In this document: positions 11,667 through 35,655 of the stretch, piece by piece | Position numbering within the stretch: position 1 is the first letter of the stretch | How the letters are laid out: each line of letters starts with the position of its first letter | From: Acidobacteriota bacterium | GTDB taxonomy: Bacteria; Acidobacteriota; Vicinamibacteria; Vicinamibacterales; 2-12-FULL-66-21 | Length of the DNA stretch: 64,000 bases | Direction of reading: 5' to 3' | NCBI GenBank assembly: GCA_016184105.1 | Contig: JACPDI010000031.1 | Span: 70,673 to 134,672 of the forward strand | Notes under the pieces: generated by a model | What the model was told of the DNA's origin: nothing | Seen by the model: only the letters and a program-made list of their open reading frames with translations | Databases searched by the model: none | Program-made: the position numbers and the translations under genes

Positions 11667-13589
<1,923 letters not shown>

Positions 13590-29669: not shown

Positions 29670-32600
29670 TCAGTGAAAGTCGCGCGCCTCGACATCAGGG
29701 CCGCCGCCGCCGAGACCGTACAACCGCTCAGCTTTAATGGACGTCACTCCTTCCTGGATTTGCAGTGTGCCTTCCACCAGCAGGTAAGCCTCGCCGACCA
29801 CCGAACGCCGCTGCTTGGCGAACAGATCCGGCCGGACGATGATGTTGGCGATGCCCGTTTCGTCTTCAAGCGTGAGAAAGACGAACCCTTTCGCGGTGCC
29901 CGGCCGCTGGCGCGCGATGACGGCGCCCGCGACGCGCACGCGGCGGCCGTGCCGCCCCTGCGGCAGATCGCAGGCGCGCAGCACGCCGCGCAGCGCCAGC
30001 TCCTGGCGCCTGAGCGACATCGGATGCGGCCCGATCGTGAGACCGGTGCCCGCATAGTCCGCCTCGATGCGCTCGGCAAGCGTCATCCGGGCCAGCGGAC
30101 TCGCGTCGGCGGGGTCGGGAACCTGGGACCCGGGATCCGAAAACAGCTCACCCGCCGGCCGCATCGCGCGCTCGATCTGCCACATCGCGGCGCGCCGCTC
30201 GTAACCGAACGCGTTGAGCGCGCCGATGTCAGCCAGCGCGCGCAGCTCGTCGCGATGCACGCCGCTGCGCGCCACGAAGTCGTCCAGGGAGGTGAAGCGC
30301 GAAGGCGGCCGGCTGCACGTGGCACGTCGCACGTCGCACGTGGCACGTGGCACGTGGACCGCCCACTCGTGCGCGCAGACGCTACAGAAGCACGTCGTCC
30401 CCACGCGCTCGATCATCGCTTCGTCGTCCGAACCGCACTTGGGGCAAATGTCACGTGCGACGTGCGACGTGCCACGGTGCGACGTGCGATCGTGCGACGT
30501 GCGATCGTGCGACGTGCGATCGTGCGACGTGCGATCGTGCGGCGGACCGGCCTGCTCGATGGCCTTTCCCGCCTCCGCGCGCAGCCCATTGACGTATCGC
30601 AGCCCGAGGCGCACGCGCCCGTCCTCCTCGATGCTGCAGCCCCACCCCGACACCTGCACGTCGATCGGCGCGAAGCGCACGCCGCGGCGCTGCGCATCCT
30701 TGACGAGCGTGGCCGGCGAGTAGAACCCCATCGGCTGGTTGTTCAGCATCGCGGTGTAGAACGCCGCCGGGTAATGCGCCTTCAGGTAGGCGCTGGCATA
30801 GACGAGCAGCGCGAAGCTCGCGGCGTGCGACTCAGGGAAGCCGTAGAGCGCGAACGACGTGATCGCGCGGATGATCTCCTCCGCCGCGTCGTCACCGATC
30901 CCCTGCTTCGCGATGCCATCGCGCAGCTTCTGTTCGATCACGCGCATCCGCTTCTCCGAGCGCTTGAAGCCGAACGCGCGGCGCAGCTCCTCCGCTTCCC
31001 CTCCCGTGAATCCCGCCGCGACCATCGCCATGCGCAGGAGCTGCTCCTGGAAGAGCGGCACGCCGAGCGTGCGCTCGAGGATCGGCGCGAGCGACGGGTG
31101 CGGGTACACCACCGGCTCCACGCCGCGGCGCCGCTTCAGGTACGGGTGCACCATCTGGCCGACGATCGGACCGGGCCGGATGATCGCCACCTCGACGACG
31201 ATGTCGTAGAAACGCTCGGGCTTCATCCGCGGCAGCGTGGCCATCTGGGCGCGTGACTCCACCTGGAAGATGCCGATCGTGTCCGCCTCCTGCAGCATGC
31301 GGTAGACCGCGGGGTCGTCGGGGGGGAGGTGGACCAAATCCAGAGGGGCCGCAGGCGCTCCTCTGGCCTCTGAATTCACAATCGTCAGCGCATCTTGAAG
31401 CACCGCCATCATCCCCAGTCCAAGCAGGTCAACCTTCACGATCCCCATGTCCGCGCAGTCGTCCTTGTCCCACTGCGCGACGACGCGGCCGGGCATGCTG
31501 GCGTTTTCGAGGGGAACGACTTCATCGAGCCGCCCCTGGCAGACGATCATGCCGCCGGAGTGCTGCCCGAGGTGCCGCGGCAGATCGTGGATGCGCTCCC
31601 ACAGGTGGCCGAACGTGCGCAGCGCCGCGTTGGCGGGATCGAGCCCCGCGTCGCGCAGGTGCCGCTCGAGCGTGTCCTTCGGGTCGATCCACTCGAAGGG
31701 GTTCATCACCTTCGCCAGGCGGTCCACCTCGCCGGGCTCCAGCCCGAGGACCTTGCCGATATCGCGCGCCGCGCTGCGCCCGCGATAGGTGATGACGTTG
31801 GCGGTCATTGCCGCACTCTGCCCTTCGGGGGCCGCACTCTGCCCTTCGGGGGGCGCGCCACGCTTCCCGTAGCGCTCGTAGACGTACTGAATCACTTGCT
31901 CGCGGCGGTCGCCGCTCGGCAGATCGAGATCGATGTCGGGCCACTCGCCGCGCTCCTCGGAAAGAAACCGTTCGAAGAGCAAATCCATCCCGACCGGGTC
32001 CACCGCGGTGATGCCCAGGCTGTAGCAGACCGCGCTGTTGGCCGCCGAGCCGCGCCCCTGCACGAGGATCCCGTGCTGCCGGCAGTAGTTCACGATGTCC
32101 CAGACGATGAGGAAGTACCCGGCGAGATCGAGCTTCTCGACGAGCGACAGCTCGCGCTCGATCTGCGCGCGCGCGCGCGCGTGGTACGGCCGATAGCGCT
32201 CGCGCGCCCCCGCGTCCGTGATCTTCCGCAGGAACGAGCCCATCGTCTCGCCGGCGGGCACGGGGTACTCGGGAAAGCGGTAGCCGAGATCGGCCATCGT
32301 GTACTGCAGGCGGTCCGCCAGATCGCGCGTCGCCGCCACCGCGTGCGGCAGATCGTGGAAGAGCACCGCCATCTGCTCCGGCGACTTGAGGTACCGCTCC
32401 GCGTTCACGCTGAGGCGCCGGCCTGCGCGCGCGATCGTCGTCTTGTGACGGAGGCACGTGAGGACGTCGTACAGCGGGCGATCGGCCGGCTCGGCAAAGC
32501 GCACGCCGTTGGTCGCGATGACGGGGACGTGAAACGCCGAGGCCAGCGACAGCAGCGCGTGGTTGTCCGATTCCTCGTCGCGGCGCAGATGGCGCTGCAG

Positions 32601-33122
32601 CTCGACGTACACGCTGCCGCGCCCGAACATGCCGACGGCGCGGTCGACGAGCCCGCCCACGCCGTGCCGCGGCCCCTGCAGCGCCTCGCGCCCGATGAGC
32701 GCGACGAGCCCCGCCGTGCGGCCGTCGAGCTCCTCGAGGTCGAGCGACCCCTCGCCTTTCGGCGCGCGGAGCTTCATCTGCGTGATCAGGCGGCAGAGAT
32801 TCTTGTAGCCAATGGCGGACTCGACGAGGACCGGGAGACGCCAGAGGGAGAAAAAGGGGTCGGGAGCCTTTTTCGAGGCGTCAACGGCGAAAAAGGCTCC
32901 CGACCCCTTTTTCTCCCTGATCGTGATCTCCGCGCCGACAATCGCGCGCAGCCCCGCTTTCTTCGCCGCCAGGTGAAATCGCGGCGCGCCGTAGAAGCCG
33001 TCTCGATCGACGAGGGCGAGCGCCGGATAGCCGAGCGCCGCCGCGCGGTCGACGAGCGCTTCGGGCAGCGAGGCGCCGTCGAGGAATGAAAAGGCCGAAG
33101 CGGAATGGAGTTCGATATACAC
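29670..33122 (-). CDS. dnaE2: Error-prone DNA polymerase III alpha subunit DnaE2 (ImuC), with several in-frame insertions
   Basis: GTG start, then MYIELHSASAFSFLDGAS PHP domain. Pol III alpha core motifs run throughout and a C-terminal OB region is present. Sits downstream of imuA-imuB. Confidence 0.9.
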   Translation of the reverse strand: MYIELHSASAFSFLDGASLPEALVDRAAALGYPALALVDRDGFYGAPRFHLAAKKAGLRAIVGAEITIREKKGSGAFFAVDASKKAPDPFFSLWRLPVLVESAIGYKNLCRLITQMKLRAPKGEGSLDLEELDGRTAGLVALIGREALQGPRHGVGGLVDRAVGMFGRGSVYVELQRHLRRDEESDNHALLSLASAFHVPVIATNGVRFAEPADRPLYDVLTCLRHKTTIARAGRRLSVNAERYLKSPEQMAVLFHDLPHAVAATRDLADRLQYTMADLGYRFPEYPVPAGETMGSFLRKITDAGARERYRPYHARARAQIERELSLVEKLDLAGYFLIVWDIVNYCRQHGILVQGRGSAANSAVCYSLGITAVDPVGMDLLFERFLSEERGEWPDIDLDLPSGDRREQVIQYVYERYGKRGAPPEGQSAAPEGQSAAMTANVITYRGRSAARDIGKVLGLEPGEVDRLAKVMNPFEWIDPKDTLERHLRDAGLDPANAALRTFGHLWERIHDLPRHLGQHSGGMIVCQGRLDEVVPLENASMPGRVVAQWDKDDCADMGIVKVDLLGLGMMAVLQDALTIVNSEARGAPAAPLDLVHLPPDDPAVYRMLQEADTIGIFQVESRAQMATLPRMKPERFYDIVVEVAIIRPGPIVGQMVHPYLKRRRGVEPVVYPHPSLAPILERTLGVPLFQEQLLRMAMVAAGFTGGEAEELRRAFGFKRSEKRMRVIEQKLRDGIAKQGIGDDAAEEIIRAITSFALYGFPESHAASFALLVYASAYLKAHYPAAFYTAMLNNQPMGFYSPATLVKDAQRRGVRFAPIDVQVSGWGCSIEEDGRVRLGLRYVNGLRAEAGKAIEQAGPPHDRTSHDRTSHDRTSHDRTSHRGTSHVARDICPKCGSDDEAMIERVGTTCFCSVCAHEWAVHVPRATCDVRRATCSRPPSRFTSLDDFVARSGVHRDELRALADIGALNAFGYERRAAMWQIERAMRPAGELFSDPGSQVPDPADASPLARMTLAERIEADYAGTGLTIGPHPMSLRRQELALRGVLRACDLPQGRHGRRVRVAGAVIARQRPGTAKGFVFLTLEDETGIANIIVRPDLFAKQRRSVVGEAYLLVEGTLQIQEGVTSIKAERLYGLGGGGPDVEARDFH
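30315..30356 (+). repeat. Heptamer tandem array (GCACGTS x6) inside dnaE2
   Basis: gcacgtg gcacgtc gcacgtc gcacgtg gcacgtg gcacgtg, 42 nt. On the coding strand it translates as VHVPRATCDVRRATC. Confidence 0.9.
30452..30540 (+). repeat. Inverted-orientation heptamer / 15-mer tandem array (SACGTGC units; gacgtgcgatcgtgc x4) inside dnaE2
   Basis: cacgtgc gacgtgc gacgtgc cacggtgc, then four copies of gacgtgc-gatcgtgc. Encodes (HDRTS)x4. The units are the reverse complement of those at 30315-30356. Confidence 0.9.
31810..31851 (+). repeat. Perfect 21-bp tandem duplication inside dnaE2
   Basis: gccgcactctgcccttcgggg x2, encoding PEGQSAA-PEGQSAA. Confidence 0.9.
32846..32917 (+). repeat. 72-nt perfect palindromic element inserted in frame in dnaE2
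   Basis: 28-nt arms gggagaaaaaggggtcgggagccttttt / aaaaaggctcccgacccctttttctccc around a 16-nt loop. 24 codons (EKKGSGAFFAVDASKKAPDPFFSL). Confidence 0.9.
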
Positions 33123-33191
33123 GAAGGTTCACACGAAGGTTCACACGAAGGTTCACGCGAAGGCTCACGCGAAGGCTCGCACGAAGGTTCG
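33120..33191 (+). repeat. 12-bp tandem array x6 abutting the dnaE2 start codon (imuB-dnaE2 spacer)
   Basis: cacgaaggttca x3, cgcgaaggctca, cgcgaaggctcg, cacgaaggttcg. On the coding strand the units read TGAACCTTCGTG, and the last GTG is the dnaE2 start. Confidence 0.9.
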
Positions 33192-33248
33192 ACCGCGCGC
33201 TCTGAATCCTCGCCGGAACCACCGTTCGAACCCTCGTGAGAACCTTCG

Positions 33249-34721
33249 TCAGTCCAGAATCCCCTCTACAAACCACCTGTCCTCGTGACGATCGCGGCAG
33301 ATCCGGTAGGCCGCGCCGTCGGCGAGCGTTACGTCGTATTCATCGCGGTCCCAGCAGGCGCCGGGGTCGCGGCCGCTCCACCAGCCGCCGGACGATCGCC
33401 ACGGCCCGGCGCACTGCTCCACCGCGCCGCCGCGGATGCCAATCCGATCCGTGGTCACGCGCGCCACCCGCTCGCCCTCGAGCGCCACGCGCGCGACAAC
33501 GGGGATGCGAAAGCGTCGCAGAACAGGTCTCGCCTTCGCGCTTCGCGCTTCGGCGCAGCTGGCGCCCCTGTTCGCGCTTCGCGCTTCGGCGGGCGCGAAC
33601 GGCGCGAGCGTGAACGCGTCCGGCGCGTGCGAGTCGAGGAGCACCGGCGAGCCCACGCGTCCCTCTCCCATCAGCGCCGTCAGCCTCGACACCACCGTCG
33701 CGATCGTTTCGGGCTGCGTCCCGGCGCGCTCGAGCAGCGAGAACTGGACGATGCGTCCCGGGGCCGGCTCGAGCCGGACGGCGATACGATCGATGCCCGC
33801 CGGCGGCGGATGGGACTCGAGATCGAGCAGGATGAGCGTGCGCAGCACGCGCGCCTCGCGCATCGGCGCGGGCAGCTCGATGCGCCGCACGTGCGTCTCG
33901 CGCGTCTTCGTCCCGTCCGCATCCACGCGGGCGGTCACGAGCGTGAGCGTCGTCTCGAGAACGGCTGCGCCGCGATCGGCGCGCTCGAGCGCGGCGCTCA
34001 ACGGATCGAGCAGCCGCGTGAGCACGAACGACACCGGCTGCAGCGCGTCGAGCGGCCACTCGAGATCGAAGGACGCCTCGAAGCGCGCCTCGTCGAGGAC
34101 CGGCACGAGCGGCTGCGTGTCGAGGCCGCGCGCGAACCGCTGCAGCACGACGCCGGCCTGGCCGAGCCGCGCCGCCAGATCGGCCGCGGGCAGCGCCGCG
34201 AGATCGCCGAGCGTGACCAGCCCCCATCGGCGCAGCGTGGCAAGCTCGGTGCACGCGCCGCCCGGCTCGCCGCAACGGCCGGGCGCGCCGGCCAGGCGGC
34301 ACAACGCGCAGGCGCGAACAAGGGGCCGGGAGCCTTTTTTCTGCAGCCGCGGCGGTAAAAAGGCTCCCGGCCCCTTGTTCGCCGCCAGCGTGTCGAACAC
34401 CTCCAGCGACAGCGCGCCCACGGCGGCCGCGGTCCTCCCCGGCAGGACGACGCTGTACGGCTGCGCGATGGCGAGCAGGAGGGCCGCCGTGCGGGAGGGC
34501 GCGACCGCCACCGACACGGTCACGTGCGGCGTGCGACGTGCGGCGTGCGACAGTTCTTCCGCGATCGCCGCGGCATCGCCAACGATGCGCGTGAGGCCGG
34601 CGGTGTCGATGAGCACCAGCCGCCCGCCGAGCTGCGGCTCGACGCGCGGCGAACACGCCTGTGCCGCGGCAAGCAGCGCAGCGGCATCCTTACTGTCCGG
34701 GCTGAACAGTGCGGCGAACAC
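33249..34721 (-). CDS. imuB: ImuB, Y-family-polymerase-like mutasome subunit
   Basis: Position between imuA and dnaE2, and VFAALFSP...LVLIDTAGLTRIVG N-terminus. I propose the GTG at 34721, preceded by GGAGG-containing repeats. The ORF-track start at 34829 lies inside imuA. Confidence 0.75.
   Translation of the reverse strand: MFAALFSPDSKDAAALLAAAQACSPRVEPQLGGRLVLIDTAGLTRIVGDAAAIAEELSHAARRTPHVTVSVAVAPSRTAALLLAIAQPYSVVLPGRTAAAVGALSLEVFDTLAANKGPGAFLPPRLQKKGSRPLVRACALCRLAGAPGRCGEPGGACTELATLRRWGLVTLGDLAALPAADLAARLGQAGVVLQRFARGLDTQPLVPVLDEARFEASFDLEWPLDALQPVSFVLTRLLDPLSAALERADRGAAVLETTLTLVTARVDADGTKTRETHVRRIELPAPMREARVLRTLILLDLESHPPPAGIDRIAVRLEPAPGRIVQFSLLERAGTQPETIATVVSRLTALMGEGRVGSPVLLDSHAPDAFTLAPFAPAEARSANRGASCAEARSAKARPVLRRFRIPVVARVALEGERVARVTTDRIGIRGGAVEQCAGPWRSSGGWWSGRDPGACWDRDEYDVTLADGAAYRICRDRHEDRWFVEGILD
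33535..33606 (+). repeat. Imperfect 36-nt tandem duplication inside imuB
   Basis: ttcgcgcttcgcgcttcggcg occurs at 33535-33555 and at 33571-33591. Encodes the AEARSA...AEARSA repeat. Confidence 0.75.
34314..34382 (+). repeat. 69-nt perfect palindromic element inserted in frame in imuB (same family as 32846-32917)
   Basis: 26-nt arms gcgaacaaggggccgggagccttttt / aaaaaggctcccggccccttgttcgc around a 17-nt loop. 23 codons (ANKGPGAFLPPRLQKKGSRPLVR). Confidence 0.9.
34521..34548 (+). repeat. Heptamer array (cacgtgc ggcgtgc gacgtgc ggcgtgc) inside imuB
   Basis: Same SRCGTGC unit family and orientation as 30452-30540. Confidence 0.8.
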
Positions 34722-35493
34722 TCCCCGAACCTCCGTGCGCACCTCCGTGCGAACCTCCGTGCGAAGCCCGCCCCAGCACGCGCGCCTGCGGCGCAATCCC
34801 GTCGAACAGCCGCGCGCGCGCCGACGCACCGCGCCACCGGGGCGCGGCGGCGCCGCCGAGCACGATCGTCACGCCCCCCGCGCTGCGGCCGGCGCGCTCG
34901 GGCGCGACGAGCAGCGCGGCGGTGGATCCCCCTTCGATCAGCCGCGCCAGGCGAAGCCAGGTCGTGAACGGCAGCCGCCGCAGGACGGGCGGCGGCACGT
35001 CGGCGAGATCGCAGACCGCGAGGCCGAAGGCGCGCGACTCCAGCACGACGGTGAACGCCTTGAGCGCGCGCTCCACTGCACGCCAAAGCGATGAGGTGTT
35101 TCCCGGCGCCGCGTGCCCGCTCGCGCGGATCGCCTCGACGCTGGCCGCCACGCCGCGCACCCACAACAGGTTCCCGAGCTGCACCCCCGTGGCCGCCGCC
35201 GACTCCACATCGAACCGATCCAGCGCGTCCACCAGCGCCGCCGCCCCGCCGGCCGCGGTCGCCGACGCAAGCGCGGCACACATGAGCGTGGTCCGCCCGG
35301 TGGAGCGCGCTCCCGCAATCTCCGACAGCTCACCCCGCGGCAATCCACCGCCAAGCCGCGCGTCGATCTCGGCATGGCCGAGCGGCAGCAGCGGCCGCCC
35401 GGCGTCGAGCGCCGGGCGCAGGTGCGTCAGCGTGGCGTCGAGCTTTTTCGCGCGAAGCAGCGATTCGAGGTGGGCGCGGGCCGCGGCAGCCAT
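34690..35493 (-). CDS. imuA: ImuA, RecA/SulA-like mutasome subunit
   Basis: LPLGHAEIDARLGGGLPRGELSEIAGARSTGRTTL Walker-like segment. First gene of the cassette. ATG at 35493. Confidence 0.75.
   Translation of the reverse strand: MAAAARAHLESLLRAKKLDATLTHLRPALDAGRPLLPLGHAEIDARLGGGLPRGELSEIAGARSTGRTTLMCAALASATAAGGAAALVDALDRFDVESAAATGVQLGNLLWVRGVAASVEAIRASGHAAPGNTSSLWRAVERALKAFTVVLESRAFGLAVCDLADVPPPVLRRLPFTTWLRLARLIEGGSTAALLVAPERAGRSAGGVTIVLGGAAAPRWRGASARARLFDGIAPQARVLGRASHGGSHGGAHGGSGSVRRTVQPGQ
34727..34762 (+). repeat. 12-bp tandem array x3 at the imuA 3' end / imuB start
   Basis: gaacctccgtgc gcacctccgtgc gaacctccgtgc. The coding strand reads GCACGGAGGTTC, so each unit contains GGAGG. Encodes (SHGG)x3 at the ImuA C-terminus. 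The unit resembles the reverse complement of the 33120-33191 unit. Confidence 0.85.
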
Positions 35494-35538
35494 GGTGTCC
35501 GGTCGAGGTGTTTCGCTTTTATTTCGCCTGCCGGACGC

Positions 35539-35568
35539 AGTATAAACCACCCAGCGACGCTGGGGCAA
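35539..35568 (-). promoter_or_regulatory. Candidate sigma70-type promoter of imuA with a palindrome in the spacer
   Basis: The minus strand reads TTGCCC-N18-TATACT. The spacer contains the inverted repeat CCAGCG-t-CGCTGG (35551-35563). The -10 lies about 46 nt upstream of the imuA ATG. Confidence 0.3.
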
Positions 35569-35578
35569 CATCGCCGCG

Positions 35579-35630
35579 GAACACGCAGAACACGCGGAAA
35601 AATACGGGATCCTGCGTGTTCAGCGCGTTC
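35579..35630. promoter_or_regulatory. Inverted repeat with GAAC/GTTC tetrads in the imuA / MFS divergent region (candidate operator)
   Basis: GAACACGCAGAAC ... 26 nt ... GTTCAGCGCGTTC. The inner arms GAACACGCAG / CTGCGTGTTC are perfectly complementary over 10 nt. Confidence 0.35.
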
Positions 35631-35655
35631 CGCGGCGCAGCCCTCTCCTGCTAAG

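Follow-up and report, generated by a model that had tools for sequence, protein, structure and literature searches.

A convergent short-tandem-repeat satellite at the imuB-dnaE2 junction of a Vicinamibacterales bacterium

Why does the start codon of a DNA polymerase gene lie inside a tandem repeat? The question is raised by a window of 64,000 nucleotides (nt), analysed here at its full length (contig JACPDI010000031.1, positions 70,673 to 134,672), from a metagenome-assembled genome of an uncultured bacterium of the order Vicinamibacterales (4.24 Mb, 68% GC). A mutasome operon of imuA, imuB and dnaE2, the last coding for the error-prone DNA polymerase, is located on the minus strand, and six 12-nt direct repeats at the end of the imuB-dnaE2 spacer run directly into dnaE2. 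DnaE2 drives damage-induced mutagenesis, so its level sets the mutability of the cell under stress, and at this locus the start codon belongs to a repeat that is mobile or expanding, and a predicted hairpin of great stability encloses it. An initial annotation of the window proposed that the repeats form an iteron-like protein-binding array or, alternatively, that they contain minimal open reading frames (ORFs) which tune re-initiation after imuB. More probably, and with moderate confidence, the array forms the 3' arm of a convergent hairpin satellite residing in a tolerant junction, where it probably insulates or attenuates dnaE2 translation. The element as a whole is best read as belonging to a satellite family, either selfish or driven by slippage, whose dispersed copies occupy gene junctions of Vicinamibacterales and turn over rapidly. 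The anatomy of the element, its membership of a family, its dispersal, its non-conservation and the lack of promoter, terminator, Shine-Dalgarno and SOS-box signals in the spacer are observations; every effect on expression or translation is inferred.

The array itself was recovered by Tandem Repeats Finder at 33119-33190 with period 12, 6.0 copies, 91% matches and a score of 109, and its units are as annotated. On the coding strand, from 33191 down to 33120, their order is CGAACCTTCGTG, CGAGCCTTCGCG, TGAGCCTTCGCG and then three copies of TGAACCTTCGTG. The array is only one half of the element, as three degenerate units in the opposite, G-rich orientation begin at the base directly after the imuB stop codon (33251-33249), and a short segment separates the two arms (Table 1). 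These inverted units are the true partner arm of the six-unit array, and they were overlooked in the initial annotation, which described imuB as bracketed by inverted arrays. The second array of that description, at the imuA/imuB junction, is real and has the opposite orientation, but it is less relevant than the adjacent inverted arm. The layout of the element is convergent: CGAAGGTTC-type units, a short centre and GAACCTTCG-type units. Between arms 33121-33167 and 33203-33249, complementarity is 77% over 47 nt, and more than one register of pairing is possible, several in all.

When a 171-nt RNA of the junction was folded, the minimum free energy (MFE) was -80.9 kcal/mol (z = -4.8), and none of 200 shuffled sequences was as stable. 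The predicted stem is about 31 bp long with single-nucleotide bulges, and its outer 10 bp are made by the first 5' unit and the last 3' unit. At the base of the stem, A33249 of the imuB UGA is predicted to pair with U33121 of the dnaE2 GUG, and C33248 with G33122. In this model, a single long hairpin takes up essentially the whole 126-nt imuB-dnaE2 spacer, and its base holds the stop and start codons. The distance of 126 nt between the two codons is, in linear terms, beyond the coupling range of 10-20 nt, and in the predicted fold they are base-paired.

Table 1. Positions of the repeat element, a related array and the genes of the mutasome operon in the window.
Feature	Position	Strand	Basis or remark
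3' arm, C-rich orientation: six units of 12 nt, CGAACCTTCGTG type	33120-33191	minus	Tandem Repeats Finder, direct-repeat family D1, in-frame translation
Central segment, 24 nt, CGGCGAGGATTCAGAGCGCGCGGT	33192-33215	minus	MFE fold: partly paired with inner 3'-arm units
5' arm, opposite (G-rich) orientation, three degenerate units: CGAAGGTTC TCA CGAGGGTTC GAA CGGTGGTTC	33216-33248	minus	
imuB stop codon TGA	33249-33251	minus	
dnaE2 (error-prone DNA polymerase), 1150 aa	29670-33122	minus	GTG start, no Shine-Dalgarno; NF004225
imuB, 490 aa	33249-34721	minus	GTG start at 34721, GGAGG 8 nt upstream of start
imuA	34690-35493	minus	weak RecA/ImuA profile matches
Related 12-mer array, CACGGAGGTTCG x3.3 on coding strand (CGAACCTCCGTG x3.3, opposite orientation)	34726-34765	minus	imuA/imuB junction

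The last GTG of the array (33122-33120) is the dnaE2 start, as the initial annotation had it. Judged by sequence, it is the sole usable start, because 9 nt before it the frame is closed by a TGA, residue 2 begins the conserved N-terminus Y-I-E-L-H-S-x-S-x-F-S-F-L-D-G-A-S, and alignments with DnaE2 of relatives begin at residue 1-2. No alternative in-frame ATG, GTG or TTG was found in about 70 codons read by eye, the conserved PHP motif included. The identity of DnaE2 is secure from profile comparison, with 1210 bits against NCBIfam NF004225 (cut-off 939) and residues 2-1150 corresponding to profile positions 6-1047; ImuB and ImuA gave only weak profile matches (Y-family and RecA/ImuA, respectively). 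None of the Shine-Dalgarno cores GGAG, GAGG, AGGA and AAGG is present within the 20 nt preceding the start, which bears out the earlier statement that such a sequence is missing here. The genome does use Shine-Dalgarno sequences, as GGAG/GAGG peak at -10 ahead of ORF starts genome-wide. The anti-Shine-Dalgarno sequence of 16S rRNA was sought as well, in an assembly without rRNA genes. Genes imuB and dnaE2 and the spacer lie in one frame with five in-frame stops, all of them TGA (the imuB stop and four within the array). Recoding of TGA or an ImuB-DnaE2 fusion was rejected, as imuB of relatives ends with TAA or TAG and their spacer lengths are not multiples of three.

The in-frame reading through the array into dnaE2 is ...TFV*TFV*TFVYIELH, and the two annotated GTG-TGA pairs are real. 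According to the start-stop explanation, such pairs would capture and release scanning ribosomes that have finished imuB, and so set how many of them reach the true GTG. Two exact pairs and a five-codon mini-ORF do stand in frame directly before the start, and in this the array resembles minimal upstream-ORF regulators, where a start is directly followed by a stop. Such regulators also have a recruiting signal of their own and are conserved, but the GTG-TGA units here are without their own Shine-Dalgarno sequence (no similar core occurs anywhere in the 3' arm), their GTGs lie in the predicted stem, and they follow simply from the unit sequence TGAACCTTCGTG. Array units of relatives differ from these and have no evident start-stop content, as far as can be said when no formal start-stop screen was made. 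Post-termination scanning over long spacers, moreover, proved rare or absent in a published study (PMC10666635). Of all explanations considered, start-stop tuning is the least probable. The GTG-TGA pairs and the 12-nt period would rather be by-products of the unit sequence, with no designed device behind them.

If the array is the arm of a satellite hairpin, its effect on dnaE2 may be derived from published work. A stable structure just past a stop codon is reported to shield the cistron behind it from re-initiation (Chemla et al. 2020, bioRxiv 10.1101/2020.02.10.941153), and termination-reinitiation is nearly abolished by a spacer of about 20 nt (Huber et al. 2023, PMC10666635). Because post-stop structure insulates and re-initiation fails beyond about 20 nt, expansion of the repeat would bury a weak start and lower DnaE2. 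The satellite would have expanded in this lineage within the imuB-dnaE2 spacer, which is short and Shine-Dalgarno-poor across the order and repeatedly collects arrays. In the operon mRNA, the hairpin would then hide the Shine-Dalgarno-less start, and DnaE2 synthesis would be lowered relative to that of ImuB. What initiation is left would depend mainly on ribosomes that end translation at the imuB UGA, open the stem at its base and so briefly free the GUG on the other side of it. In the free RNA, the predicted probability of being unpaired is 0.001 for the first G of the GUG, 0.10 for the U and 0.93 for the third G. With a ribosome modelled at the imuB stop, so that 12-15 nt downstream are kept single-stranded, the value for the U rises from 0.10 to 0.82-0.87, and that for the third G is 0.68-0.98.

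The hairpin could also act on transcription. In an attenuator, it would pause or terminate RNA polymerase without a U-tail, and less dnaE2 mRNA would be made. A predicted hairpin of about -81 kcal/mol would suit this, and a repeat-built hairpin with a T-run does follow a stop codon elsewhere in the genome (contig C38, 153547-153600). On the other hand, no U-tract follows the stem, and a scan of 33100-33260 for intrinsic terminators, i.e. GC-rich stems with a U-tract, was empty. No promoter-like site was found in the spacer either. The sole promoter-like site of the operon lies upstream of imuA (TTGCCC-N18-TATACT), and without a separate promoter for dnaE2, full termination would shut off a conserved gene. 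Attenuation of transcription is thus regarded as very unlikely. An Rfam scan of the spacer returned no family at threshold and one weak sub-threshold match of microRNA type.

How the junction varies was followed in 82 distinct imuB-dnaE2 junctions, that of the window and those of 81 relatives. Spacer lengths range from -4 to 528 nt, with 16 junctions at 10 nt or less, 23 at 11-40 nt, 17 at 41-100 nt and 26 above 100 nt; spacers of at most 40 nt account for 39 of the 82. A Shine-Dalgarno-like core precedes dnaE2 in 12 of the 39 short spacers and in one of the 43 long ones. Short-unit arrays are present at the junction in 31 of the 81 relatives (38%), and in many of them the array reaches the start codon or ends within a few nt of it. 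Their units are mutually unrelated (CCGTGAA, CAATCCG, GCTGTCA, ACTGCCC, ATCACCAA and others). For comparison, about 8% of generously defined junction zones in the own genome carry an array, the relatives have 0.108 arrays per kb (400 kb in twenty random 20-kb stretches of 18 genomes), and coding control windows inside the mutasome loci contained arrays in 2 of 155 cases. At imuA/imuB junctions, arrays were found in 7 of 15. These enrichment statistics ignore phylogenetic non-independence, which is mitigated by the lack of phylogenetic signal: on the DnaE2 tree, presence of an array requires 25 state changes, against 25.7 +/- 2.2 with shuffled labels. Turnover of the arrays therefore outpaces species divergence. 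In the nearest relative, which is of the same genus and 85% identical, the spacer measures 19 nt and is free of arrays. Metagenome contigs were searched too; a scan for the exact array pattern gave no match, and a protein-guided scan gave no relative above 75% identity.

Several observations weigh against a satellite that acts by hiding the start. The array enrichment at the junction is about five-fold and could reflect selection for some function, and the own-genome array baseline depends on crude ORF calls (ORFs and baselines of this genome come from a caller based on G+C content at third codon positions). A small clade (L005/L034, L033 and L116), to which the close relatives L005 and L033 belong, has one-orientation GAACC arrays with units of 10-11 nt and no hairpin; these arrays begin with the stop codon (TGAACC...). 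When the ribosome footprint is modelled, the start codon keeps its first G paired, and mean accessibility from -12 to +5 rises only from 0.27 to 0.33-0.37. A stem closing the whole spacer, defined by at least 5 bp with its base within 6 nt of both the stop and the start codon, is found in 7 of 42 long-spacer relatives, with 3.8 expected from shuffles. A conserved stop/start closing stem was accordingly rejected; since the stem is not conserved, the juxtaposition of stop and start is a local matter and no conserved design.

The satellite reading is supported by the rest of the genome, where 536 short-unit arrays were counted. Among the 87 strong ones, about 30 have a GAACC/GGTTC core and about 27 an ACGTG core, and 61 lie outside ORFs or at an ORF 5' edge, often a few bases from a stop codon. 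Neighbouring arrays with related units (at most 400 nt apart) are inverted in 13 of 14 pairs. Convergent arrays have a fixed polarity on either strand, with the C-rich arm on the 3' side. Among the strong junction hairpins of relatives (n = 20), 12 have their G-rich half on the 5' side and none on the 3' side; in the inverted pairs of this genome examined by eye, the G- or purine-rich arm comes first wherever the bias is clear, and the opposite was not seen. The 12-mer of the array is also present on four other contigs, C34, C38, C42 and C52. That GAACC arrays generally precede start codons was considered and rejected: it is true only for dnaE2 and for a coaE-like gene on C34, where one of two unit GTGs on the outer side is the start codon (MRKVALTGGIATGKS). 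The rule fails because the C38 copy follows the stop of a gene on the opposite strand and the C42 copy is coding.

Two side observations concern this family. At C38:153547-153600, a hairpin of AGGAAA/TTTCCT hexamer arrays stands directly after a TAA stop and is followed by a T-run, so that it resembles an intrinsic terminator built of tandem units; four GAACC 12-mer copies come after it, directly against the stop of a convergent gene. In the GGTTC family, many units (GGGGTTCGAA, AGGGTTCGAG, GGTTCGAAG) are similar to the tRNA T-arm consensus GGTTCGAATCC, which may be a coincidence.

The copy on C34 may connect the family with intervening sequences (IVS) of 23S rRNA, the stems of which are excised by RNase III. 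A 23-nt stretch of the 5' arm, CGAACCCTCGTGAGAACCTTCGT, is identical to C34:11176-11198 of the same genome (G000), and C34:11176-11332 is a decayed fragment of a four-helix-bundle gene of 23S-IVS type between inverted copies of the 12-mer. PF05635 is the family of these four-helix-bundle IVS proteins, and of its four hits above the Pfam cut-off in the genome, three have an array within about 120 nt; the fourth, inside the window (C49), has none by the Tandem Repeats Finder criteria. RNase III might likewise cut the imuB-dnaE2 stem, separate the imuAB and dnaE2 mRNAs and free the start or leave a very short leader. The long, nearly perfect predicted stem and the arrays flanking PF05635 genes, including the decayed copy, point in this direction, but cleavage sites are not predictable from sequence, and relatives with one-orientation arrays or short spacers do without a stem. 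RNase III processing is therefore considered unlikely. In comparison with the IVS stems, arrays of the same kind lie beside PF05635 genes, but the imuB-dnaE2 element has no cargo gene and is located outside rRNA. It may be a cargo-less derivative of them or have arisen independently.

Beyond this genome, the 9-nt core of the unit was searched for as the dimer CGANGGTTC-N1-5-CGANGGTTC in 201 genomes of the order. It was found in 14 of them, spread over three or more families, and the reversed control pattern gave one match in total. Copies number 66 in G055, 16 in G161 and six in this genome; G055 and G161 are members of the order from families other than that of this genome. In each of the five loci examined in G055 (L192, L195, L198, L200 and L202), the architecture is convergent, with 12-14-nt units and unrelated centres, and linkers between CGANGGTTC units in the G055 and G161 arrays are 1-5 nt long. 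The patchy distribution of these bursts points to horizontal spread, or else to a transferable factor able to recognise the unit.

This distribution bears in two ways on the iteron-like array of the initial annotation, in which a regulator (LexA or the four-helix-bundle protein of repeat-flanked cassettes) would bind the 12-nt units on DNA and control dnaE2 or the whole operon. Recurrence of the core CGANGGTTC with variable linkers in distant genomes is better explained by recognition of the unit than by slippage alone, and units 2-3 repeat GCGAA at a 12-nt period, much as a candidate SOS box of the operon repeats GCGAAA at an 11-nt period. Iterons and operator arrays are, however, conserved at their locus and fixed in unit spacing, and neither was found here. 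The nearest relative has no array at this place, the 81 relatives have unrelated units or none without phylogenetic signal, and the unit occurs at other loci and in distant genomes with linkers of 1-5 nt, so that helical phasing is not kept. Dozens of arrays adjoin unrelated genes, and the spacer has no promoter. The unit is also unlike the candidate SOS box, which has an A-rich spacer and a different period. An operator role of the array is very improbable. Iteron-like and start-stop readings thus lack comparative support, and RNase III processing and transcriptional attenuation are the live rivals of the satellite reading.

Before imuA, between the -10 element and the ATG, stands the candidate SOS box GCRAAAnAAAAGCGAAA (35511-35527, minus strand, GCGAAATAAAAGCGAAA). 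A near-identical sequence, CGCAAAAGAAAAGCGAAA on the reverse strand, is present in the promoter spacer of lexA (G000 C53, about 11700-11760), and the strict pattern has only one further occurrence in the genome besides GCGAAATAAAAGCGAAA. Similar GCGAAC-AAAAA-GCGAA motifs stand before dnaE2 in relatives where imuB is not upstream (L064, L069, L085, L133, L139 and L151). From sequence, the motif is thus proposed as a candidate SOS box for the order. The array showed no LexA operator: it has CGAAGG at period 12, and the spacer is without a promoter. Within the element, a Cheo-like GAAC-N4-GTTC (third inverted unit) and a GAAC-N8-GAAC (array) had been considered as LexA boxes, and both were dropped once a different motif had been found in common upstream of imuA and lexA.

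REP-type (repetitive extragenic palindromic) hairpins are known to stabilise upstream mRNA and, when located within about 15 nt of a stop codon, to reduce translation of the upstream gene. The imuB-dnaE2 element is like the REP elements, bacterial interspersed mosaic elements (BIME) and REPIN of Enterobacteria and Pseudomonas (Di Nocera et al. 2013, PMC3733652) in being a dispersed non-coding hairpin between operon cistrons. It differs from them in that its arms are tandem 12-mers and not a single palindrome of 20-40 nt, with no GTAG/CGTC at the arm ends. A closer counterpart is found in heptamer arrays. In Xanthomonas, GGGAATC arrays are 89-93% intergenic, lie near or overlap the upstream stop and form 70-75 convergent pairs (Rehm et al. 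2015, PMC4692102). These and the heptamers of Nostoc/Anabaena (PMC4692102) share with the present arrays short head-to-tail units in many copies, about 90% of them intergenic, mostly between co-directional ORFs and hard against or overlapping the upstream stop, and two arrays are often convergent, so that a stem-loop is possible. As in other satellites, at least three head-to-tail units of about 6-14 nt, dispersed and mostly intergenic copies, and convergent arms able to form a stem-loop are present here, and the element is an instance of this known kind, the convergent short-tandem-repeat satellites. In contrast to the heptamers, the unit here is a 12-mer of GAACC/GGTTC type without G-runs (unit CACGAAGGTTCG has no run of three G) and without the G-quadruplex potential of GGGAATC/GGGGAYT. 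Vicinamibacterales, moreover, have many coexisting unrelated unit families that turn over between species, and at this locus the next gene takes its start codon from the array. The ribosome termination structure (RTS, Chemla et al. 2020) is alike as a stable mRNA structure immediately after a stop inside an operon, but it is a statistical folding signal and no repeat element, and here the structure also holds the downstream start codon.

The consequences differ with the role of the arrays. The same junction has acquired unrelated arrays repeatedly across an order of abundant soil bacteria. If they are mere tolerated passengers, it is a clean example of a refuge for selfish hairpins, i.e. of Shine-Dalgarno-poor junctions with low demand for expression; arrays that modulate expression would give the mutagenesis system a control that mutates rapidly. 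In a more far-reaching version, which is quite unlikely, the satellites would be evolvable valves on the error-prone polymerase, tunable by copy number, and the start would be reached only by ribosomes that cross the stem from the imuB stop. Such a route would correspond, in bacteria, to the ribosome shunt of plant pararetroviruses, which consists of a short ORF plus a stem, with the imuB stop at the 5' base of the hairpin and the dnaE2 start at its 3' base. For annotation, gene starts that lie inside repeats without a Shine-Dalgarno sequence are easily miscalled.

Repeats are not confined to the imuB-dnaE2 spacer, and the mutasome operon (29670-35571) has four strong arrays in 5.9 kb, with about 0.12 expected from the genome average. 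Where imuA meets imuB, the related array codes for the ImuA tail SHGGSHGGAHGG (SHGG-SHGG-AHGG) and carries three GGAGG motifs, the last of which is the imuB Shine-Dalgarno sequence, 8 nt before GTG 34721. An inverted pair of GAAC-containing 9-mer units (CGCGGAACGCGCTGAACACGCAG ... CTGCGTGTTCTGCGTGTTCCGCG) is located at 35573-35640, a short way before the operon's single promoter-like site, and because of this position hairpin arrays precede as well as interrupt the operon. Near-perfect in-frame hairpins are present also inside the genes, at 32841-32922 in dnaE2 and at 34306-34391 in imuB, with sub-threshold microRNA-type Rfam matches only. The hairpin insert of DnaE2 corresponds to about residues 70-95, where the alignments of relatives split.

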